From: Clostridia bacterium
GTDB taxonomy: Bacteria > Bacillota > Clostridia > Christensenellales > CAG-917
Direction of reading: 5' to 3'
Assembly (NCBI GenBank): GCA_045613765.1
Contig: JAZLBO010000022.1
Coordinates: 15,854 to 79,853 of the forward strand
DNA length: 64,000 nt
Shown: positions 7,888 through 16,301 of the stretch, piece by piece
Numbering within the stretch: position 1 is the stretch's first letter
Layout: each line of letters begins with the position of its first letter
The notes under the pieces: generated by a model
The model's input: the letters and a program-made list of their open reading frames with translations, nothing else
Told to the model about the DNA's origin: nothing
The model's database searches: none
Position numbers and translations under genes: made by a program

Positions 7888-7911
7888 TAAACTGCTTGTT
7901 TGGAGAATAAG

Positions 7912-8370
7912 ATGAACAACAAGGCATACAATTATTACGGCGCAGAGCATAAAATAAACGTGAAAAATTGCTTGTATGACGGCATAAAAAACATACACGA
8001 TTTATACGACGCTCTCGTCAAATCTTGGTCAAGAGAAACCTGCACCCAAAGGCTACGGCACAAGTGGACAAAGGAAGATTACACCTGTGGACAATGTGCA
8101 ATCACTGCCTTTGTTGTGCAAGATATTTTTGGCGGGGACATATATGAAATCCCTCTTGAAAGCGGTGGCGTGCACTGTTTCAACCTTATTGACGGAGTGG
8201 CAGTTGACCTTGCCAGTGAGCAGTTTGGCGACAAGGCAAAAGACTTGGACTACACAAACAATATCGCACTCCAAGACCGAGAACTTCGTATGCTACAGCC
8301 GGGCAAGAAAGAAAGATATGAACTGTTGAAATCCAACCTGAAAGCATATCTTGACGGCAACAAACATTAA
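7912..8370 (+). CDS. YunG-like protein (uncharacterised family)
   Basis: ATG 7912 follows GGAGAA. SWSRETC...CGQCAITAFVVQDIFGGDIY...HCFNLIDGVAVDLASEQF resembles the pattern I recall for B. subtilis YunG-family proteins. Confidence 0.65.
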   Translation: MNNKAYNYYGAEHKINVKNCLYDGIKNIHDLYDALVKSWSRETCTQRLRHKWTKEDYTCGQCAITAFVVQDIFGGDIYEIPLESGGVHCFNLIDGVAVDLASEQFGDKAKDLDYTNNIALQDRELRMLQPGKKERYELLKSNLKAYLDGNKH

Positions 8371-8395
8371 AGAAAATCACAAAAAATACAAAAGA

Positions 8396-8424
8396 AAACG
8401 CACCGAAATTGGTGCGTTTTTTGT
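8396..8424. terminator. bidirectional rho-independent terminator
   Basis: AAACGCACC-gaaatt-GGTGCGTTT flanked by an A-run and a T-run. Sits between convergent genes 7912..8370 (+) and 8447..8818 (-). Confidence 0.8.
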
Positions 8425-8446
8425 TTTATGAAATTTCTCTATTAAG

Positions 8447-8818
8447 TTAAAAATAAAAATAAGGCAACTGATTATATTCGGGATTATTTCTATACTGGTC
8501 GGGAAGATTTGTGTTTGCCATATATTTGTCACGAAAACTATTGTCGGGCATATCACATAAACAAATATAGGAGCACTTCCCTTCAAGTTCCTTGACAAGC
8601 TTGGACTCATATTGAGGAAAAGCAAACTTGTTCAAATACTCAATAAACCCATCATCACTGGGGCTTCTCCCCATCTTCCTTTTTATAGATTCTGCTTCAG
8701 GTGACTTGCTGAGCCAAGTGCAATATTTAAGACAATGCTCTCTCAAATTGTCTGCAACCTCATTGGGCACTGAATATACGTTGCAACTATATGTTTCACC
8801 AAGCAATACTTTCTTCAT
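8447..8818 (-). CDS. hypothetical small cytoplasmic protein, paralog 1 (MKKVLLG...PEYNQLPYFYF family)
   Basis: 123 aa. N- and C-termini nearly identical to 10385..10732, centre diverged. Consensus promoter upstream. Confidence 0.75.
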   Translation of the reverse strand: MKKVLLGETYSCNVYSVPNEVADNLREHCLKYCTWLSKSPEAESIKRKMGRSPSDDGFIEYLNKFAFPQYESKLVKELEGKCSYICLCDMPDNSFRDKYMANTNLPDQYRNNPEYNQLPYFYF

Positions 8819-8849
8819 AGTTTTTCCTTTTTTTGTGTTTGTTGTTATT

Positions 8850-8877
8850 ATTATAGCAGTCTTTATAGTGTTGTCAA
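8850..8877 (-). promoter_or_regulatory. consensus sigma-A promoter of paralog 1
   Basis: Minus strand reads TTGACA, 16 nt, TGcTATAAT (extended -10). About 30 nt upstream of ATG 8818. Confidence 0.7.
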
Positions 8878-8913
8878 TCTTTTACTTCAAAGGATTGTGT
8901 GTACCTTTATAAA

Positions 8914-8942
8914 TTGGATTTTTTATTTTTTTGTGATATAAT
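8914..8942 (+). promoter_or_regulatory. sigma-A-type promoter upstream of the ECF sigma operon
   Basis: TTGGAT (8914-8919), 17 nt, TGaTATAAT (extended -10, TATAAT at 8937-8942). Confidence 0.55.
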
Positions 8943-9015
8943 CAACAAAAAGAAACATTTACAACAAGCAATCAACAAACAATTTATCACAAATTTTAAT
9001 TTTTTTGCTTTTTGA

Positions 9016-9044
9016 TGAAACGTTTTGCGTAGTTGTGAGTCTTA
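9016..9044 (+). promoter_or_regulatory. candidate ECF-type autoregulatory promoter
   Basis: TGAAAC (9016-9021), 16 nt, aGTCTTA (GTC at 9039-9041). Resembles SigW/SigM-type AAC-N16/17-CGT(C/A) promoters. Lies just upstream of the RBS. Confidence 0.3.
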
Positions 9045-9063
9045 TAAGCGAGGAGGTGAGAAA

Positions 9064-9555
9064 GTGACAGATTTTGAAAAGATATACGCTCAATACTTTG
9101 AGGGCGTATACAGATACGTCTTTTCGCTTTGTAAAAACCAATCCGTTGCAGAAGACATAAGCCAAGATGCGTTTTATAAGGCAATGGAACACATGGATCA
9201 ATTTGACGGACAATGCAAGTTATATACTTGGTTGTGCCAAATTGCCAAAAACACATATTTTACATACGCAAAAAAGCAAAGTCGCCATACGGCAGAAACA
9301 GACGTCAGTTTGTGCGAGCCCTCAGAGCCAAATTTTGAAGAAAAACTTTTGAAAAAGGAATCTGCGTGGGAAATTCACAAACTGATACACCAACTTAGCG
9401 AGCCATACAAGGAAGTTTTCTCATTGCGAGTCTTTGGAGAATTGTCCTTCTCACAAATCGGGGAACTATTTGGCAAAACGGACAGTTGGGCAAGACTAAT
9501 TTTCTATCGAGCAAAAAAGGAATTAAGGAGAGATAGTGATGAAGACAAATTGTGA
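9064..9555 (+). CDS. ECF-type RNA polymerase sigma factor (sigma-70 family, group 4)
   Basis: ORF track gives 9025..9555. GTG 9064 follows GAGGAGGTGA. Region 2 is YRYVFSLCKNQSVAEDISQDAFYKA. Region 4 is FSLRVFGELSFSQIGELFGKTDSWARLIFYRAKKELR. Confidence 0.85.
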   Translation: MTDFEKIYAQYFEGVYRYVFSLCKNQSVAEDISQDAFYKAMEHMDQFDGQCKLYTWLCQIAKNTYFTYAKKQSRHTAETDVSLCEPSEPNFEEKLLKKESAWEIHKLIHQLSEPYKEVFSLRVFGELSFSQIGELFGKTDSWARLIFYRAKKELRRDSDEDKL

Positions 9556-10306
9556 TATTATTCAAGACATACTACCACTCTACTGCGACAACGTTTGCAG
9601 TGAAGTAAGCAGACAAACAGTTGAAGAACATATAAAAGAGTGCGAAAACTGCAGAAACGATTTAATGCAAATGCAAAAGGAAGTCAAGGAGCAAGCACCC
9701 AAACTTGACGAAAAGAAAGTTGCCAAATCTGCAAAATCTGCTTGGAACAAGAAAAAAACAATTGCCTTTGTGGCAGGTTGCCTTGCTGTCTTGTTAGTTA
9801 TATCTGTGGGGATAGTGGCAGGTTTGACATTTCACATAGCATATTCCGTCGACGGAAACGACTATGAGGCAATGGCAAAGCATGCACAACAATATCGCGA
9901 CTATGGAGAATTAACCATAGAAAAAGTTGCAATTAGAGGGAATTACTTGGCTGCTCTATGCAAAAATGAAGACGGCGAGTGGCTTATGTATGAATTTGAA
10001 CGTGACGGTATATTCCGCAATCGCTGGGTTGTATCAGGTGGAACAATGGGCATACAAGAAGGTGCTATATTCGGCACATTCAATTATGGAAGTCCCATGG
10101 GAGAAGCCGTAATTATCGTCTTCGGTGGAGATATTCCCGATGAAGTGCATAGTTATAAGCTTGAAGTTGGCGGAATAACATATATTTGCCCTATTGATGG
10201 TGATACTGTATTAGATATTTATGTAATACAGGATGAAAATGACATCAGTGCAACTCCTCATGCTTTGGATGCAAATGGAGAAGAAATTCCCGGATATCTT
10301 TATTAA
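9539..10306 (+). CDS. zinc-finger (zf-HC2, H-x3-C-x2-C) anti-sigma factor, single-pass membrane
   Basis: Overlaps the sigma gene's 3' end. HIKECENC motif, one TM (IAFVAGCLAVLLVISVGIVAGL) and an extracytoplasmic domain of about 150 aa. Confidence 0.8.
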   Translation: MKTNCDIIQDILPLYCDNVCSEVSRQTVEEHIKECENCRNDLMQMQKEVKEQAPKLDEKKVAKSAKSAWNKKKTIAFVAGCLAVLLVISVGIVAGLTFHIAYSVDGNDYEAMAKHAQQYRDYGELTIEKVAIRGNYLAALCKNEDGEWLMYEFERDGIFRNRWVVSGGTMGIQEGAIFGTFNYGSPMGEAVIIVFGGDIPDEVHSYKLEVGGITYICPIDGDTVLDIYVIQDENDISATPHALDANGEEIPGYLY

Positions 10307-10331
10307 ATAACGTTTGTATCCACCATATAAC

Positions 10332-10362
10332 AAAACGCACCTTGTTTGGGTGCGTTTTTTGT
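10332..10362. terminator. bidirectional rho-independent terminator (homologous to 8396..8424)
   Basis: AAACGCACC-ttgttt-GGGTGCGTTT followed by a T-run. The flanking sequence is near-identical to the 8.4-kb copy. Confidence 0.8.
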
Positions 10363-10384
10363 TTTATAAAACTTCTCTATTAAG

Positions 10385-10732
10385 TTAAAAATAAAAATAT
10401 GGCAACTGATTATATTCGGGGTTATTTCTATATCGGTCAGGGAGATTTGGGTTTGGCATTGAGTAATCAATGATGCAACCACCTACTATCTCAAGCTCCT
10501 CAACAAGCTTAGATTCATACTGAGGAAACTTAACCTTGTTTAAATACACCTTTACAAATCGCTCGTCGCCAGGAAACGGCGGGTATTTCTTTCTGAGCCT
10601 CTCCGCTTCGGGTGAGGTCCCGCGCAACCACTCGCAATATTCCATGCAATAATCATCCAAATTGTCTGCCACCTCATTGGGCACCAAGTACACGTTGCAA
10701 CTATAGACGCCGCCAAGCAATACCTTTTTCAT
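10385..10732 (-). CDS. hypothetical small cytoplasmic protein, paralog 2
   Basis: 115 aa. MKKVLLGGVYSCNVYLVPNEVADNL...NLPDRYRNNPEYNQLPYFYF. Paralog of 8447..8818. Confidence 0.75.
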   Translation of the reverse strand: MKKVLLGGVYSCNVYLVPNEVADNLDDYCMEYCEWLRGTSPEAERLRKKYPPFPGDERFVKVYLNKVKFPQYESKLVEELEIVGGCIIDYSMPNPNLPDRYRNNPEYNQLPYFYF

Positions 10733-10765
10733 ATTTCTTTCCTTTTGTTTCTTGTTGTATATATT

Positions 10766-10793
10766 ATTATAGCAACATTGATGGGTTTGTCAA
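10766..10793 (-). promoter_or_regulatory. consensus sigma-A promoter of paralog 2
   Basis: Minus strand reads TTGACA, 16 nt, TGcTATAAT. Same architecture as 8850..8877. Confidence 0.7.
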
Positions 10794-10799
10794 CATAGC

Positions 10800-11357
10800 T
10801 CAAACAGGACTTATAAAAAGAGGTAGATTCGGTGGCGCATAGGTGAACGTGACAAAGAGTGCACCTATCACTATTATGACTGTCAATGACAAGACACTCC
10901 ACACCTTTCTACATCCGCCCTCCGCCCTTTTGAAGAGCATATACTCTACGGCGTAGGCGCAGATGTCTGCCCACATAAATATGGATATGTTGAGCCAATC
11001 GGGAGATTTGCCAAAGGCTCCGTTGTAGGTGTAAAACACCATGGGGATAAACGCAATCCCAACCACTATTCCAACAAGTTTGACGGCAAAAAAGCAAGGG
11101 TATTCGTGACGGAAGAAAAACCACTGCACCACACCAAACAACAACATTGGCACGTATAATATCTTCATGTGTTGCCACGTGCTTTCATCTATGGCAGAAA
11201 AGGGTTTGACAACACCACTTTGCCCCGTCCAGTCGTACAAAAAATGTAAAACAGTGCCAAGTATCGCCACCGTCAGCACTCCACCAACACACCACCAAAA
11301 CAATTTATCTCTTGCCGACGCCCTGATTTTCATACAAATAGTGTATGATTTCACCAC
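10800..11357 (-). CDS. multi-pass membrane protein, DUF6512-like
   Basis: 185 aa with about 5 TM segments. LGTVLHFLYDWTG...FSAIDESTWQHMKILYVPML fits the pattern I recall for DUF6512. The start is uncertain: GTG 11357 or ATG 11333. Confidence 0.6.
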   Translation of the reverse strand: MVKSYTICMKIRASARDKLFWWCVGGVLTVAILGTVLHFLYDWTGQSGVVKPFSAIDESTWQHMKILYVPMLLFGVVQWFFFRHEYPCFFAVKLVGIVVGIAFIPMVFYTYNGAFGKSPDWLNISIFMWADICAYAVEYMLFKRAEGGCRKVWSVLSLTVIIVIGALFVTFTYAPPNLPLFISPV

Positions 11358-11394
11358 CGCTTTTATACGCTTTCACTCAACTCCCTGCAAAACG

Positions 11395-11436
11395 GCAAAA
11401 AAAGCCTAACTTGAACACGCAGTTCAAGTTAGGCTT
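11395..11436 (-). terminator. rho-independent terminator of the toxin/immunity-like cassette
   Basis: Perfect 14-bp stem AGCCTAACTTGAAC / GTTCAAGTTAGGCT. T-run on the minus strand. Confidence 0.85.
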
Positions 11437-11532
11437 TGTCTGGTAGAAAGTTCGGTGTATAAACCGATATTTATATTACGAATATTGATTTATGTAAAAT
11501 GTTTTGTGGTTAACAAGCCGATTTATGATGAC

Positions 11533-12018
11533 CTATTTTATCACCTTTAAATCTTCTATTTTAACAGAAATGCAATCCCCATAAAAATTGCCTTTTTCAT
11601 CAATGCCAGAAAAATCTACTTCTATATAGTTTTGGACAGCAGTGTTGTTCATTACACATCCTCTGTCACCTTTGGCTATACCCAACTTTGTATATTCTTC
11701 CGCATCAACCATCAATTCAACCATGTCATATTCATTAATTACAACTGGTTGTAAGACATTTGTCGCTTTCTTCAAAATATTCTTTATATTTTCATATAGT
11801 TCTTGTTGTATTTTATGCGGCAATTTCTCTTTATCTGCGCTTAAATCATGAATGTTTACATCAACTACTGCACAATTGCCTATATTTTGAGGATTAAAAA
11901 ATAAAACAGAAATGGTGTCTGCATTTTTGCCCATGACAACACCATGCATGTCTTTTTGCAAATTATTTTTTATGTATGGTTTTTCATTTGTCAATTTTAC
12001 CAAATCATACGTTCTCAT
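11533..12018 (-). CDS. tandem DUF4926-like protein (candidate immunity/antitoxin)
   Basis: ATG 12018 overlaps the upstream stop (ATGA). Two SH3-like halves: YDLVKL...MHGVVMG... and YDMVELMV...GDRGCVMN...IEVDF. Confidence 0.65.
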   Translation of the reverse strand: MRTYDLVKLTNEKPYIKNNLQKDMHGVVMGKNADTISVLFFNPQNIGNCAVVDVNIHDLSADKEKLPHKIQQELYENIKNILKKATNVLQPVVINEYDMVELMVDAEEYTKLGIAKGDRGCVMNNTAVQNYIEVDFSGIDEKGNFYGDCISVKIEDLKVIK

Positions 12019-12599
12019 TTTATCCAACCCCCAAACGGTGTGGTGTTCCTGATTTCACCCTCAGGACAAAGCAGCCAACCACTATAAAAAGTTTTTCCAT
12101 TTAGTTTTATAGGAATTGCCAATCGTTGTCCATTTTTGTCCAAATTCTTTAATACATAATCCCCTAACAAATATTGATTTATTGCTTGTTTGCAGTATTC
12201 GTTTTGTAAATATGAAGAATCATTTATATCAAAACCTAAATCATAAAATATTTTGTTTTTACCTTTTGAAACTTCTGTGGCTTTAAAAACATATTCAGTA
12301 AATTTTCTTATATCGCATTCTGCTGATGATTTGTTTTTGACCTTTGAGTATGCTATATCCTTTTTATGGCAGTCGCAATTTTCATGAAGCGGTTGTTCGG
12401 GCATATTTCTTGCTGCCAAAAAACAACCATCCAGTGCCGAACAACTCATACAGTGGCCAAGCAAAGCCATTATATTACGCAAAATCTCTCTTAACCATTT
12501 TGGCTTGTTAGGAATTGAGAAGTGGTCCCACTCTATCCATTGATTAAAAACAATTTCGCCATCTTTACCAATTTGAATTAAATCATTAAATATACCCAT
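12015..12599 (-). CDS. MuF/SPP1-gp7 C-terminal signature fused to a DUF6883-like module (candidate orphan polymorphic-toxin tip)
   Basis: 194 aa. RBS AGAGGAG. HCMSCSALDGCF...PEQPLHENCDCH matches the C-x2-C...P-L-H-x-N-C-x-C end of the MuF domain. C-terminus reads KFTEYVFK...GKNKIFYDLGFD... Confidence 0.6.
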   Translation of the reverse strand: MGIFNDLIQIGKDGEIVFNQWIEWDHFSIPNKPKWLREILRNIMALLGHCMSCSALDGCFLAARNMPEQPLHENCDCHKKDIAYSKVKNKSSAECDIRKFTEYVFKATEVSKGKNKIFYDLGFDINDSSYLQNEYCKQAINQYLLGDYVLKNLDKNGQRLAIPIKLNGKTFYSGWLLCPEGEIRNTTPFGGWIK

Positions 12600-12829
12600 A
12601 GTATAACAAATCTCCTCTTAAAATGCAAAAGTTTAGAGAAATAATAGCGTGTTTCAGTCCTTGCAGCCATGCGTTTTTTTGATTTTCAAAACAACTTGTT
12701 ATGAAATACTATTTTTTCGTCCAAATAATTGATTAATTAAATGCTATCACGAGAATTTTGCATATTCAAGACTTTGTGCCAATTATTTTTTTTAACGCGT
12801 TCGGGAAAATCTGCATTGAGAAAACCACC

Positions 12830-12970
12830 TATTAGGGATTTGTAGCGAACTTGTGAGCGTAATAGCGAAGCGAGTGTGCTTGCATACGTGAGTGGAGCGC
12901 CAGCCTGGCGTGGCAGGGTTCAGTGCCATACAACTATGGCACAGGTGCATAGCACCAAAATCCCTGCGAA
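12830..12970 (-). other. GC-rich structured intergenic element, copy A (related to 40417..40830)
   Basis: Minus strand reads GGCTGGCG, 21 nt, CACTCGCT, t, CGCTATTACGCTCAC, colinear with copy B. Contains an 8-bp hairpin GTGCCATA-caac-TATGGCAC (12923-12942) enclosed by GCAGGG/CCCTGC. Confidence 0.45.
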
Positions 12971-12975
12971 ACGAC

Positions 12976-13010
12976 AAAAAAAGGACATCGAGATTGATGT
13001 CCTTTTATTT
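12976..13010. terminator. bidirectional terminator downstream of tRNA-Ser
   Basis: AAGGACATC-gagatt-GATGTCCTT flanked by an A-run and a T-run. Confidence 0.8.
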
Positions 13011-13102
13011 TGGCGGAGAAGCAGGGATTTGAACCCTGGCTACGATTCTCTCGTACTACTCCCTTAGCAGGGGAGCCCCTTCGGCCTCTTGGGTACTTCT
13101 CC
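13011..13102 (-). tRNA. tRNA-Ser (anticodon GCU), CCA encoded
   Basis: Manual fold of the 92-nt sequence. Acceptor GGAGAAG/CTTCTCC. Anticodon stem CTCCC/GGGAG with loop CT-GCT-AA. Long variable arm (TACGA/TCGTA). T-arm CAGGG-TTCAAAT-CCCTG. Ends in G-CCA. Confidence 0.9.
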
Positions 13103-13140
13103 ATATTGCCGAATATTCAGTGCATTTTTAATGCTTGATA

Positions 13141-13169
13141 ATGATAGCACAGAGAGTGGCTGTTGTCAA
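13141..13169 (-). promoter_or_regulatory. sigma-A-type promoter for tRNA-Ser
   Basis: Minus strand reads TTGACA, 17 nt, TGcTATCAT. About 40 nt upstream of the mature tRNA 5' end. Confidence 0.55.
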
Positions 13170-13263
13170 TAATTTTTGCCGATTTTCATATTTTATCCTA
13201 ATACAATTGCTAAAACGGAAGATTATATTGGCTTTGAGCGGGTAGGTTTCGGTGGCAAAAGGG

Positions 13264-13291
13264 TTGCAATTTTGTTGATGTGTGGTATAAT
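13264..13291 (+). promoter_or_regulatory. sigma-A-type promoter of the 72-aa gene
   Basis: TTGCAA, 16 nt, TGgTATAAT (extended -10). Confidence 0.55.
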
Positions 13292-13325
13292 GATTTCGAA
13301 AAAACAATTTTTTAAGGAGAGAAAT

Positions 13326-13544
13326 ATGGAACAATTCATGCACAAAGAAGCAATTATCACTGTTGCCGGTAGAGGTGCATCACATGGCACGTTTTATATC
13401 GGGAAGATAGTGAATATTGATGGGGATTTTGTTGAAATCGCATATGATCCAACAAAAAAAATGAACAGGTTACACCACGATTCTAATGCAACAGGCAGAG
13501 CGCTTGTGAACAAGAGATATTTGGTGTACATTGACTTGCTGTAA
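13326..13544 (+). CDS. hypothetical small protein (72 aa)
   Basis: ORF track gives 13176..13544. ATG 13326 is preceded by AAGGAGAG. No recognisable family. Confidence 0.55.
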   Translation: MEQFMHKEAIITVAGRGASHGTFYIGKIVNIDGDFVEIAYDPTKKMNRLHHDSNATGRALVNKRYLVYIDLL

Positions 13545-13565
13545 TGTTGTATTAAATATCATCAC

Positions 13566-13601
13566 AAAAAAGGAAAGGATGCCCTGCTCGGCATCCTTTT
13601 T
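13566..13601. terminator. bidirectional rho-independent terminator
   Basis: GGATGCC-ctgctc-GGCATCC with an A-run and a T-run. Lies between convergent genes. Confidence 0.75.
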
Positions 13602-13613
13602 AAGTGTTTGATC

Positions 13614-14384
13614 TTAATATATGTTTGGCTCTTTGTATGGTCCTCTTTCGATACTATTGAGATCTATATAGTAATTGTTGTGATACATATCTGCAAATTT
13701 TCGTGCCTCATATCCTTCCCTTTCAAAATAGATATCAACCAAGCAACCTGTGTAAAGTTCGAAATTTTCTTCAAAGTATGTGCTTTTGTAGTCAAATCCA
13801 TCCACAGTACAATAAAAGTGAGGATGTGGTGCAGATATGATTGAGGCAACGGTTGCCCTAATCTTGACCCCCGTTTCAATGAGTTTTTGTATGCGTTCTT
13901 GTTCTTTTCGCTTTCTTATACACGATACAACGGCATAAACGACAATTGAAAGGAAAATCAAGGAACCTGCAACAATAATCCCTATTGCAAGGCCATAAGA
14001 TTCTTTTGCATTTGCTATGGGAGTATCGGGGTTGCGCTCATCATACGTAACGGTGACAGTTTGCCCCACTTTCATTTTAATGTTAGAGCCCGGCAATTTG
14101 GCGTCTTCATAAGTTTTGTCATCTACGGTGTAAGTCACATATACGTCACGCACTTTCGTAATAATACGCCTTCCGTCCGGTTTTTCTTCTATGGTCTCGT
14201 ATTCGTCTATTGAAGTTATAACGGCAGATGTTTCTCTATAGTACACCTTGTCTTTGTTGGTTTTTACAATCATAAAACTGCCTGCCACAACAAATAAAAC
14301 AGCCACAAGCAACAAGATTATTTTAACATAAATTGGATTTTTCGTTTTTGCCGGATTCAATATAATCCTTTCATCCTTGGACAT
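13614..14384 (-). CDS. DUF3592-like membrane protein
   Basis: 256 aa. TM, beta-rich domain, TM architecture (IILLLVAVLFVVAGSFMIV...GLAIGIIVAGSLIFLSIVVYAVV) plus an extra C-terminal domain. RBS GGAGAT. Confidence 0.65.
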   Translation of the reverse strand: MSKDERIILNPAKTKNPIYVKIILLLVAVLFVVAGSFMIVKTNKDKVYYRETSAVITSIDEYETIEEKPDGRRIITKVRDVYVTYTVDDKTYEDAKLPGSNIKMKVGQTVTVTYDERNPDTPIANAKESYGLAIGIIVAGSLIFLSIVVYAVVSCIRKRKEQERIQKLIETGVKIRATVASIISAPHPHFYCTVDGFDYKSTYFEENFELYTGCLVDIYFEREGYEARKFADMYHNNYYIDLNSIERGPYKEPNIY

Positions 14385-14416
14385 AGTACATCTCCTATTT
14401 CAATAATGATAATATT

Positions 14417-14445
14417 ATTTTATCAAAATTTCATAATCTATGCAA
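14417..14445 (-). promoter_or_regulatory. sigma-A-type promoter of 13614..14384
   Basis: Minus strand reads TTGCAT, 17 nt, TAAAAT. Confidence 0.5.
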
Positions 14446-14573
14446 GTTCTTTGATGCCAACGGCACTTTTTTTTACAACAATCTTGCCATCAATAATTAT
14501 ACGCATATTGACAAAATCGCAGTTTTATTCCATATTTTAACCACAATAAAACCCTTGTTTTGTCAATATAATC

Positions 14574-14607
14574 AAAAAAATATCTCTGCTGTTATTGCAG
14601 AGATATG
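14574..14607. terminator. rho-independent terminator after 14648..15451
   Basis: ATATCTCTGC-tgttat-GCAGAGATAT 10-bp stem. A7 upstream, T-rich downstream. Confidence 0.8.
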
Positions 14608-14647
14608 CTTTGTTTTCGGTTGGTTTTGTGAGTTGATTTTGCTTTTG

Positions 14648-15451
14648 TCAAATCTCGTCTGTGGATGATATGGCATTGTGATTGCGCTGTTCATCCTTGC
14701 CGACAACCATGTGTTTATTGCCTGCGTTGTCAATGTATTCCTTTTTGATAAGGACTTCTCCGTTTTTGGTTGCTTCCTTTTCGAGCTGGGCAAGTTCATA
14801 TCCAGAGCGATCGCCGTACTTATCTTTGCCTTCAGCAAGTCTCTTTTCCTTCTTTGCAAAACTTGTGAGATAGAAAGTGATAAAGAGTGCCACTGCAAGA
14901 ATAATAAATCCGTACAAAACAAAGTCCGTGTAGCCTTCAGGCACAAGGGCGACGATAAGTGTCAATATGCCTGCTGCAATGATATTGCCAATAAACACAG
15001 ACAATGCTGCTTTCCACAACTTAAAGTCCAGTATGCTTGCGATTGCACTGCCCGTCCAACTGCCTGTCATGGGCAACGGCACTGCCACAAACACCAAGAC
15101 ACCCCAAAACTTTTTGGCGTCCATAGACAATTTTTTCTTGCCCTTGCCGTCTTTGTCAAGTTCGGGCGCTCTTTCGTTCAAGTTGTTTTCAAGAGCCTTG
15201 CCAAGTTTGCCAAAGGTTTTGCTTTGTTTCATTTTGCGAATAAGGGGGCGTATGACAAGGATAAGAGGCACAACCATCAATGATGAGCCTGCCACACAAC
15301 AAAACATCCCTGCCACCATATTCACATCCATGCCACTCATGAATATAATTGCCCCACGAAGTTCGATAATGGGGATAATGGATATGATGAACAAGGTCAA
15401 GTAATCGTTGCCTGTCAACTCTCTAAAAAATGTGATAATTGTTTCTGTCAT
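14648..15451 (-). CDS. putative small multidrug export family (COG2426-type) membrane protein with C-terminal extension
   Basis: 267 aa. The IIPIIELRGAII motif is typical of this family. About 70-aa charged C-terminal tail. Confidence 0.7.
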   Translation of the reverse strand: MTETIITFFRELTGNDYLTLFIISIIPIIELRGAIIFMSGMDVNMVAGMFCCVAGSSLMVVPLILVIRPLIRKMKQSKTFGKLGKALENNLNERAPELDKDGKGKKKLSMDAKKFWGVLVFVAVPLPMTGSWTGSAIASILDFKLWKAALSVFIGNIIAAGILTLIVALVPEGYTDFVLYGFIILAVALFITFYLTSFAKKEKRLAEGKDKYGDRSGYELAQLEKEATKNGEVLIKKEYIDNAGNKHMVVGKDEQRNHNAISSTDEI

Positions 15452-15554
15452 ATTGCACCTTGAAAGGAATTATATATCAAAAGTTTTCGCCCGTCAACAA
15501 AACTCATACCTATTATACTTGCCTAAAACCACCATTATGCATTATAATAAAAGC

Positions 15555-16301
15555 ATGCAAAAGATACTTTCAGCAATGCGCAGAGCAATCCAAGACTACG
15601 ATATGATCCAAGACGGCGACAAAATCTTCGTCGGTCTTTCTGGTGGAAAGGATAGCACGCTGCTTTTGGCAGGCCTGAAGGCCTATCAACGCTTTTCTCC
15701 AGAGCGCTTTACCCTTGAGGCCATAACCATTGATATGGGGCTTAAAGATGCCAATAAAGAGGAAATGAATGCGTTGACTGCTTGGTGCGAGTCTATGGAC
15801 GTCCCACATCACGTTGTAAGCACCGATATAGCCGAGATAGTCTTCGAGGCAAGGCAAGAGTCCAATCCGTGTTCACTGTGCGCTAAAATGCGTCGTGGCG
15901 CGTTGAACAGCACTCTCTTGGAACTTGGTGGTGGCAAACTCGCACTTGGACACAACGCAGATGACGTGGCAGAAACAATGCTCCTTTCATTGCTCTATGA
16001 AGGAAGATTCTCTTGTTTCTCCCCCACGGCATATATGGACAAGAAAGGCGTGCACCTTATCCGTCCTATGATATACCTTGAGGAATATGACGTCCGTAGC
16101 ACCGTGGATAGACTTGGCTTGCCCATCGTCAACAACCCCTGCCCTATGAACCATACAAGCAAGAGAGAGTATGCAAAGGATCTCATCAAGCATATCTGCA
16201 AAGATATTCCCTTTGCAAAAGACAGAATACTTGGTGCAATCTACCACCCCGAACGCAACAATCTCTGGCAAAAACCCGAAAAGAAAGACGACAAAGAATA
16301 A
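15555..16301 (+). CDS. PP-loop ATPase, TtcA-family tRNA thiolation enzyme-like
   Basis: ORF track starts at 15408, which would overlap the divergent gene. ATG 15555 (MQKILSAMRRAI...) is preferred. SGGKDS PP-loop, CSLCAKMRRG and NPCPM Cys motifs. Confidence 0.8.
   Translation: MQKILSAMRRAIQDYDMIQDGDKIFVGLSGGKDSTLLLAGLKAYQRFSPERFTLEAITIDMGLKDANKEEMNALTAWCESMDVPHHVVSTDIAEIVFEARQESNPCSLCAKMRRGALNSTLLELGGGKLALGHNADDVAETMLLSLLYEGRFSCFSPTAYMDKKGVHLIRPMIYLEEYDVRSTVDRLGLPIVNNPCPMNHTSKREYAKDLIKHICKDIPFAKDRILGAIYHPERNNLWQKPEKKDDKE

Follow-up and report, generated by a model that had tools for sequence, protein, structure and literature searches.

Two small overlapping genes beside a tRNA-Ser gene in a Clostridia bacterium (CAG-917) raise the question whether a toxin tip known from phage MuF, Rhs and WXG100-type proteins can persist as an independent chromosomal unit. 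They lie on the minus strand of a 64,000-nt stretch (GCA_045613765.1, contig JAZLBO010000022.1, positions 15,854 to 79,853), the whole of which is called the window. Gene A (12015..12599), a 194-aa open reading frame (ORF), is a candidate stand-alone toxin, and gene B (11533..12018), a 161-aa ORF, is a candidate immunity or antitoxin gene. A first-pass annotation of the letters alone had read A as the end of a phage MuF toxin, of which only the junction plus tip survives, and had mentioned a compact two-gene toxin-antitoxin (TA)-like system as another option. The latter fits better than an orphan tip. We consider it likely that the region at 11.4-13.0 kb is a horizontally acquired two-gene toxin-immunity cassette that stems from polymorphic toxins and is now a stand-alone TA-like unit.

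The gene pair

The stop codon of A (12015-12017) and the ATG of B overlap, since the reverse complement of 12015-12018 reads ATGA, and the translational coupling proposed earlier is confirmed by the sequence. Gene B has another possible start, a TTG at 12027, likewise overlapping A; the same 4-nt overlap with an ATG start of B ('MK...') was present in all of the other relatives checked (9/9). A Shine-Dalgarno-like GAGGAG, read from the sequence, is located 12 nt 5' of the A ATG (12612..12617, minus strand). DNA similarity between cassette copies stops at the B stop codon and ~40 nt upstream of the A ATG, and because it reaches ~12640 the putative ribosome-binding site of A lies inside it. The ATG of B is preceded at 9 nt by a GGGGG run within the last codons of A. 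Past the B stop, at ~95 nt, the operon is closed by an intrinsic terminator (inverted repeat I1; 11396..11442, minus strand) with the stem GCCTAACTTGAAC / GTTCAAGTTAGGC, a 5-nt loop and a T7 tail on the minus strand. The perfect stem, earlier given as 14 bp, can be counted as 13-16 bp, and the description of a pair with its own ribosome-binding site and terminator stands. A candidate sigma-70-type promoter, TTGGCA-16-CAAAAT (12755..12782, minus strand), is found ~155 nt upstream of A; it comes from a consensus scan only and is weak, with 9/12 matches.

The DUF6883 domain of A

The peptides HCMSCSALDGCFLAARNMPEQPLHENCDCH (residues 49-78) and KFTEYVFKATEVSKGKNKIFYDLGFD...NTTPF, on which the first-pass annotation was built, are present in the translation of 12599..12015. 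Residues 86-177 match Pfam DUF6883 (PF21814; E 6.5e-6) over profile positions 1-94 of 110, and at 26.8 bits the match falls just short of the cut-off of 27. This agrees with the DUF6883-type module suspected from the pattern of residues. The precomputed PF21814 label is carried by about half of the close relatives of A, and with a profile of the A family, proteins above the DUF6883 cut-off (28-39 bits) are reached at E 1e-20 to 1e-30. Judged by these profile matches, the homology of the C-terminal region to DUF6883 is secure. The candidate toxin domain, delimited by Pfam, the profile search and alignments A1 and A3, comprises residues 86-194 (12018..12344, minus strand). It is basic, with an isoelectric point (pI) of 9.1 in A and a family median of 9.4.

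In a profile search the C-terminal ~110 residues of A recurred at the extreme C-terminus of longer proteins with varied carriers. One of these is Phage_Mu_F, in P0347 (50.5 bits) and in a 528-aa protein from locus L011 where Phage_Mu_F (31.3 bits) and DUF6883 both pass their Pfam cut-offs. The others are WXG100_2 (P0359), a YD-repeat end with PG_binding_1 (P0370), Rhs-type core ends (P0346, L014, L017, L020, L024 and L025) and an N-terminus with an HExxH motif (L016). Polymorphic toxins are defined by just this pattern, a variable tip shared by many delivery scaffolds (PMC3482391), and the comparison of carriers strongly supports the view that the DUF6883 C-terminal domain is a polymorphic-toxin tip.

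The A family comprises 197 clusters at 90% identity, nearly all of 190-197 aa, and its named members come from Clostridia and Christensenellales genome bins. An exhaustive search with the family profile gave 587 representatives at 50% identity, of which the best 150 were mostly stand-alone proteins of ~180-200 aa or shorter fragments. Alignment A1 of the family has 40 invariant columns. Conserved length and invariant columns indicate that A is a functional family and no decayed remnant.

The invariant positions of A1 include H49, C50, C53, H72, C75 and C77, which together form a probable zinc (Zn) site, and W21, E23, R37 and R41 in the family-specific N-terminal domain (residues 1-85; 12345..12599, minus strand). 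In the toxin domain, alignment A3 of diverse DUF6883 sequences keeps K99 and K114 throughout and Y103, Q138, Q158, W175 and T187 almost throughout; R159 is invariant within the A family (A1), and the domain contains no conserved histidine. The AlphaFold model of A has a mean predicted local distance difference test score (pLDDT) of 89.8 and a predicted template modelling score (pTM) of 0.87. Its C-terminal domain is modelled as helices (98-144) followed by a 4-stranded antiparallel sheet (strands 149-192).

Linkage to DUF4926 genes

Among 35 genomic loci encoding DUF6883 domains, 16 have a DUF4926-type ORF of 62-134 aa within -19..+15 nt of the toxin stop. Of ten partners tested, seven exceed the Pfam DUF4926 cut-off (E 3.5e-15 to 1.2e-8), and the other three are linked to the family by hhalign (E 4e-9). 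Partners occur as a single domain, as a direct tandem (L032, 134 aa) and in a 161-165 aa form as in B. At every A-family locus whose contig continues past the A stop, a B-type partner with the 4-nt overlap follows, except at L005. There (L005:8001-9067) gene prediction gives the A-type gene 174 aa, and 56 nt lie between it and the B-type gene; the former may be a 5'-shortened or differently started toxin variant.

The two genes travel together. Across 45 pairs from ten loci the identity of B rises with that of A (r 0.72), B diverging faster (mean identity 53% vs 66% for A), and their charges are opposite, the toxin domains having a pI of ~9.1-9.4 and the partners of ~4.3-5.1. The polymorphic toxin/immunity link drawn at first reading is thus borne out by DUF6883 on MuF, Rhs, WXG100-like and PG-binding carriers and by DUF4926 genes immediately downstream, and the comparative data strongly support a toxin/immunity reading of A and B.

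At L011 (4094-5882) a MuF (PF04233) plus DUF6883 toxin gene is followed by a DUF4926 gene 14 nt downstream. Its neighbours are an M18 aminopeptidase gene on one side, with MatE further upstream, and HNH and IS110-transposase genes on the other. No intact prophage head module surrounds this toxin gene, and MuF toxins of this type thus occur outside recognisable prophages even at full length. A search for homologues with the MuF region of L011 returned none.

Protein B

The B family consists of 388 clusters, essentially all of ~161 aa, and in the loci examined a B-type gene always adjoins an A-type gene. The AlphaFold model of B (pLDDT 89.7) shows two small beta domains (6-61 and 99-159) with a helix (68-84) between them, and its best matches in the Protein Data Bank (PDB) are tandem KOW/Tudor/SH3-like proteins (E 2e-4 to 9e-4 over ~160 columns). 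Searching the PDB with the B sequence gave no meaningful match. The protein is acidic, with a pI of 5.2 overall and 4.3 in the C-terminal half.

Pfam DUF4926 (PF16277) covers residues 96-143 only (E 9.5e-4), and 5 of the 120 listed B-family clusters carry the precomputed label. Profile-profile comparison is more informative. The C-terminal SH3-like domain (residues 88-161; 11536..11757, minus strand) aligns by hhalign with bona fide DUF4926 partners that themselves pass Pfam at 35-56 bits (probability 94%, E 1.4e-7), and with the single-domain partners of stand-alone toxins (probability 98%, E 5e-14). For the N-terminal SH3-like domain (residues 1-66; 11821..12018, minus strand) the latter comparison gave a probability of 70% and E 3.9e-5, and the match to canonical DUF4926 was weak (E 0.0036). 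BLASTP detected no similarity between the two halves; the duplication is visible only by fold and profile-profile comparison. From these alignments the C-terminal half is clearly DUF4926-like and the N-terminal half, a divergent copy, probably so. The earlier description of B as two DUF4926-like SH3-type halves agrees with both the AlphaFold model and hhalign, and B is best described as a tandem-duplicated, divergent relative of DUF4926.

The MuF resemblance of A

The first-pass annotation placed the start of A near the very end of a phage SPP1-gp7/Mu-F domain. Pfam Phage_Mu_F did not match A at E <= 1, and matched one of ten distant stand-alone relatives (E 0.26). BLASTP of A against the MuF-DUF6883 protein P0347 gave 35% identity (E 9e-26), in an alignment that begins at C50 of A, paired with C111 inside the Pfam MuF match of P0347. 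Because the toxin domain contributes most of this score, residues 1-85 were tested separately. Their profile scored 16.2 and 8.7 bits against two real MuF regions, the maximum of 1000 shuffles being 8.1, and positions 45-80 alone aligned; residues 1-47 had no detectable MuF similarity in this comparison. With hhalign, residues 48-81 matched an alignment of three CxxC..HxxCxC MuF proteins, among them the capsid morphogenesis protein of Clostridioides phage CD1801, with a probability of 86% and E 5.2e-6 over 34 columns. A Foldseek search of A against viral models returned 'minor capsid protein' entries (E 4.5e-6 and 5e-3).

Since the profile, hhalign and viral-model results agree, the claim of a MuF-end motif holds, and it is the Pfam-level domain that went undetected. 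By these alignments the CxxC...HxNCxC motif at residues 48-81 (12357..12458, minus strand) appears homologous to the C-terminal end of MuF (PF04233): A keeps only the Zn-knuckle end, as a motif-level similarity, and residues 1-47 are the family's own.

A displaced or stockpiled 3' fragment of a MuF toxin gene, with the MuF junction serving as homology arm in the manner of Cdi/Rhs loci, would account for CxxC..HxNCxC being placed immediately ahead of the toxin domain, as it is in P0347, and stand-alone toxin cassettes are recognised in polymorphic toxin systems (PMC3482391). However, A has its own ATG and ribosome-binding site and a conserved, family-specific N-terminus of ~47 residues, and its length is constant across hundreds of clusters. 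The MuF similarity amounts to ~26% identity over ~34 residues and is therefore far too low for homologous recombination. Neither a MuF gene, such as the full-length gene sharing the 5' junction that the first-pass annotation had suggested looking for, nor a second cassette copy was found within the 64-kb window, and the neighbours in the A-family loci examined carry no phage Pfam family on record. We regard such a fragment as decidedly improbable. The statement that only junction plus tip survives does not fit a length-conserved family (197 clusters, 587 representatives) with its own N-terminus, start and ribosome-binding site and with no MuF gene in the window.

A tie to phages could also be functional, with the toxin loaded in trans into capsids of a resident or infecting SPP1/Mu-like phage and carried to other cells, or with the MuF stub binding a portal or head protein as a sensor, freeing the toxin from B and so triggering abortive infection. 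The viral 'minor capsid protein' models found by Foldseek and the strong conservation of the N-terminal domain of A are in line with this. Against it, no more than the last ~34 MuF residues can be recognised in A, where nothing detectable corresponds to the rest of the Pfam domain. Neither A-family nor DUF6883 patterns were found in IMG/VR, tblastn with A found nothing among INPHARED phages or PLSDB plasmids, PADLOC gave no match, and no phage genes were seen near any copy examined. A phage-linked role of this kind seems rather unlikely. A single high pTM (0.87) spans the modelled protein, so that the N-terminal domain would belong integrally to the toxin and not be a module for packaging into phage capsids.

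Distribution and mobility of the cassette

The A-B cassette was found in at least eight unrelated chromosomal contexts, and the flanking genes differ at every locus. They include a serine recombinase with ArdA; a glycosyltransferase; a flavodoxin with a copper ATPase; threonyl-tRNA synthetase with a helix-turn-helix (HTH) protein; UvrB with a transglutaminase-core protein; a VTT-domain protein with HTH proteins and Fic; ABC transporters; and, here, tRNA-Ser with DUF6512. No phage Pfam family is on record near the A-family loci examined. The GC content of the cassette is 31-34%, compared with 40-47% in the flanks.

In the closest available metagenomic relative (L046, ~80% nucleotide identity in the flanks) 226 nt separate the tRNA-Ser(GCT) gene from that of DUF6512, and this interval holds no cassette. 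As an empty site L046 is not clean, the tRNA segment being inverted and a second region missing too. From the comparison of loci, the cassette is seen as horizontally acquired, accessory and moving between chromosomal sites as a unit. A conserved housekeeping operon, which the first-pass annotation had named as an outcome that would count against its reading, was rejected because contexts vary and L046 lacks the cassette.

This distribution also bears on the idea that no toxin pair is present at all. On that view A would be a harmless protein that depends on Zn and binds or modifies nucleic acids, B would be its partner of Tudor/KOW type, and the two would serve regulation or housekeeping near the tRNA and ribosomal genes. 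The fold class of B (KOW/Tudor/SH3) is indeed common among RNA- and ribosome-associated proteins, and the locus lies beside tRNA-Ser and ~4 kb from a ribosomal-protein gene (L17, 16443..16946). A cassette whose context differs at every locus, which is missing from the nearest relative and whose GC content is atypical for its surroundings speaks against such a role, as does DUF6883 itself, which caps Rhs, MuF and WXG100 carriers as a variable tip, a hallmark of toxins. We find this highly improbable, and the toxin-immunity cassette remains the preferred reading.

A 31-nt direct repeat brackets the cassette. The left copy (11374..11404; repeat D1) follows directly after the operon terminator on the minus strand, and the right copy (12953..12983) directly after the terminator hairpin of the tRNA-Ser gene (12976-13009), again on the minus strand. 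The two copies are 84% identical (repeat motif TTTTTGYCGTTTYGCAGGGA), and the 20-nt core occurs at these two sites alone in 64 kb, two matches being seen in 0/100 shuffles. Repeats of ~190 nt at L008 (7709-7901 / 9152-9339; 90% identity, terminator included) and of 39 nt at L005 (7749-7787 / 9099-9137; palindromic) also flank the cassette, and in each case the repeated sequence is local and specific to the host. At nine other loci no flanking repeat rose above shuffled controls. The repeats suggest insertion just after host terminators with target duplication, or Campbell-type integration. The cassette unit itself contains no recombinase gene.

The tRNA-Ser(GCT) gene (13011..13102, minus strand; ARAGORN, and Rfam tRNA with 54 bits), 411 nt upstream of A and with its own terminator hairpin, probably marks the insertion site. 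Five of 18 stand-alone DUF6883 cassettes, namely those in the window and at L032, L034, L038 and L042, have a tRNA gene as their immediate upstream neighbour on the same strand, the latter four having the tRNA 230-470 nt upstream of the toxin gene or match. The adjoining tRNAs are Ser-GCT, Ser-TGA, Ser-CGA, Thr-CGT and a Met/Glu/Val cluster. This adjacency looks far above what is expected of random genes, and could reflect an insertion-site preference or read-through expression. At L001 a tRNA-Thr is located just downstream.

Proposed function

The gene structure shows A and B to be co-transcribed and translationally coupled; owing to this coupling, B would be made along with A, presumably in comparable amounts. 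A is envisaged as a cytoplasmic 194-aa toxin with the basic DUF6883 domain (~86-194) as its active part. Free A would damage the cell through this domain, and B would bind A directly and block its toxicity, as suggested by conserved linkage, charge complementarity and the analogy with immunity proteins. The C-terminal domain of B corresponds to the one-domain DUF4926 immunity proteins that accompany full-length toxins.

The chemistry of DUF6883 is most likely that of a metal-independent RNase with a BECR-like alpha+beta architecture. This assignment draws on the layout of the model, the basic pI, the conserved K/Y/Q/R/T residues and a precedent, as BECR RNase domains fused to MuF, along with solo versions, have been described (PMC5512222). 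Candidate functional residues would be K99, Y103, K114, Q138, Q158/R159 and T187. The terms DUF6883 (six times) and DUF4926 (twice) occur in a preprint on BECR classification (10.64898/2026.08.28.747851), which we take as a lead only. What the data show is the gene structure, the network of homologies, the constant pairing of A with B, the variety of contexts and the lack of the cassette at the L046 locus; the toxicity of A, its neutralisation by B, the RNase chemistry and Zn binding we infer. The pair would probably persist through addiction, or through protection against related delivered toxins, and might possibly serve in abortive-infection defence.

Several results weigh against this picture. 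A misses the strict DUF6883 threshold of Pfam by 0.2 bits, and B fails the DUF4926 cut-off of 29.1 bits with 19 bits. Foldseek of the two-domain A model against the PDB returned nothing significant, the best matches below significance being CdiA-CT EC3006 (6cp8_A, E 0.19) and MqsR (E 1.6), and sequence and profile searches of the PDB with A and a diverse DUF6883 profile gave no meaningful match. The BECR fold of the C-terminal domain is accordingly a proposed assignment. NCBIfam and PADLOC gave no match for the pair. No export signal was visible by eye in the N-terminal sequence of A, for which no predictor was run, and interbacterial killing would therefore be no more than a possible role. 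Pfam and NCBIfam revealed no DNA-binding family in B, so that classical type II autoregulation is not evident. PHROGs, too, gave no useful match for the pair.

One could speculate further that the MuF-derived Zn-knuckle is a phage-sensing or docking module, making the pair a minimal abortive-infection system or a capsid 'hitch-hiker'. The N-terminal domain of A would then recognise the portal or head of an SPP1/Mu-like phage, and the DUF6883 toxin would be released or delivered. In the same speculation the cassette would spread without a recombinase of its own, inserting after terminators or tRNA genes with local duplication; three loci have flanking repeats, of 31, 39 and ~190 nt. We hold this combination to be unlikely.

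Comparison with known systems

The MuF toxins of temperate phages (PMC5576092, PMC3482391) resemble the pair in that DUF6883 is found on genuine MuF proteins (P0347, L011) with a small immunity ORF next to it, and in that A retains the MuF-end CxxC..HxNCxC directly upstream of its toxin domain. A also has a C-terminal toxin-domain extension followed by a small overlapping immunity ORF. In contrast to MuF toxins, it lacks a Pfam-detectable MuF domain and is 194 aa long rather than ~300-500 aa or more; A-B lies outside a head-morphogenesis module, without portal or terminase neighbours; the A family was not found in phage collections; and B is a tandem, not a single-domain immunity protein. MuF toxins are defined by a MuF domain at the N-terminus, matched by PF04233 or one of the profiles MuF2-4, and by a place in a (pro)phage head-morphogenesis or packaging module beside portal and terminase genes. 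With no detectable MuF domain and no phage module around it, A falls outside that family.

DUF6883-DUF4926 pairs on Rhs, WXG100 and other carriers share with A-B a homologous toxin domain (profile E 1e-20 to 1e-30), an SH3-like partner immediately downstream and the combination of a basic toxin with an acidic partner. They differ in that the carriers have delivery domains or repeats (Rhs/YD, WXG100, PG-binding) and A has none, and in that their partners are single-domain proteins of 62-75 aa, whereas B has 161 aa and two domains joined by a helical linker.

The arrangement also recalls toxin-first type II TA systems (higBA, mqsRA; RelE/BECR toxins), with two small co-directional coupled genes, an own terminator, scattered unrelated chromosomal sites, the toxin gene upstream of the neutraliser and, in the model, an alpha+beta domain of helices followed by a 4-stranded sheet. 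Small, adjacent, co-transcribed genes forming a mobile unit are also seen here (4-nt overlap, shared terminator, at least eight contexts). However, A has no sequence match and no significant structural match to RelE, HigB or MqsR (Foldseek E 1.6 for the latter), and B has no HTH, ribbon-helix-helix or other DNA-binding domain and no sign of labile-antitoxin regulation. With the phage BECR (PBECR) domains, which are fused to MuF or portal domains (PMC5512222), the pair shares the concept of a predicted RNase domain linked to MuF and occurring in solo versions too. No described PBECR family was detected in A, since Pfam gives DUF6883 alone at E <= 1, and PBECR was described for phage and conjugative-element contexts, unlike the A-B locus.

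Orphan tips of Cdi/Rhs loci are 5'-truncated, startless and either placed downstream of a full-length toxin gene or homologous to one at the DNA level, whereas A has its own ATG, ribosome-binding site and unique N-terminus. Given its start codon, its conserved N-terminus and a length kept in hundreds of clusters, A-B is no orphan tip. It extends known toxin-immunity systems and is no new kind of system: we class A-B as a DUF6883 toxin that has become domesticated and stand-alone and keeps the Zn-knuckle of MuF as a stub, together with an immunity protein in which DUF4926 is duplicated.

Confirmation would assign roles to two domains of unknown function widespread in gut Clostridia and Christensenellales, DUF6883 as a toxin and DUF4926 as an SH3-like immunity protein, and would show how the tip of a delivered toxin of MuF, Rhs or WXG100 type is domesticated into a chromosome-hopping addiction or defence cassette. 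The MuF Zn-knuckle and the duplicated immunity domain offer testable handles on the evolution of such modules. Three points stand out: what the stub does, what the additional immunity domain contributes, and the insertions beside terminators and tRNA genes, which involve no integrase.

Flanking genes and other features of the region

A Pfam scan of ten neighbouring ORFs (7900-16301) identified YunG, an extracytoplasmic function (ECF) sigma factor, a zf-HC2 anti-sigma factor, DUF6512, DUF3592, a small exporter and a PP-loop ATPase, the remaining three having no Pfam match. None of the ten belongs to a phage-related family, in keeping with the earlier remark that no phage genes are nearby. In an Rfam scan of 11300-13300 the tRNA was the sole match.

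Between the tRNA-Ser terminator and the candidate promoter of A lies a GC-rich segment of ~170 nt (12790-12960), which has no Rfam match and an ordinary predicted stability (z -0.99). It contains a GTGCCATA/TATGGCAC hairpin, and is present neither in L046 nor in the other cassette loci.

The tRNA-Ser segment at 13011-13278 of the window is inverted relative to L046:349-616. On the other side of the tRNA, at 13173-13188, there is a 16-nt inverted copy of the flanking-repeat motif (repeat I3), and recombination between short repeats may have flipped the segment.

Two paralogous genes without a Pfam match, 8447-8818 and 10385-10732 (both on the minus strand), encode proteins of 123 and 115 aa that start with MKKVLLG..YSCNVY.VPNEVADNL and end with NPEYNQLPYFYF. 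They flank the ECF sigma / zf-HC2 anti-sigma pair (around 9025-10306). L046 lacks roughly 8877-10327, and the ECF-sigma region therefore seems to be another insertion, or a duplication, within this variable stretch.

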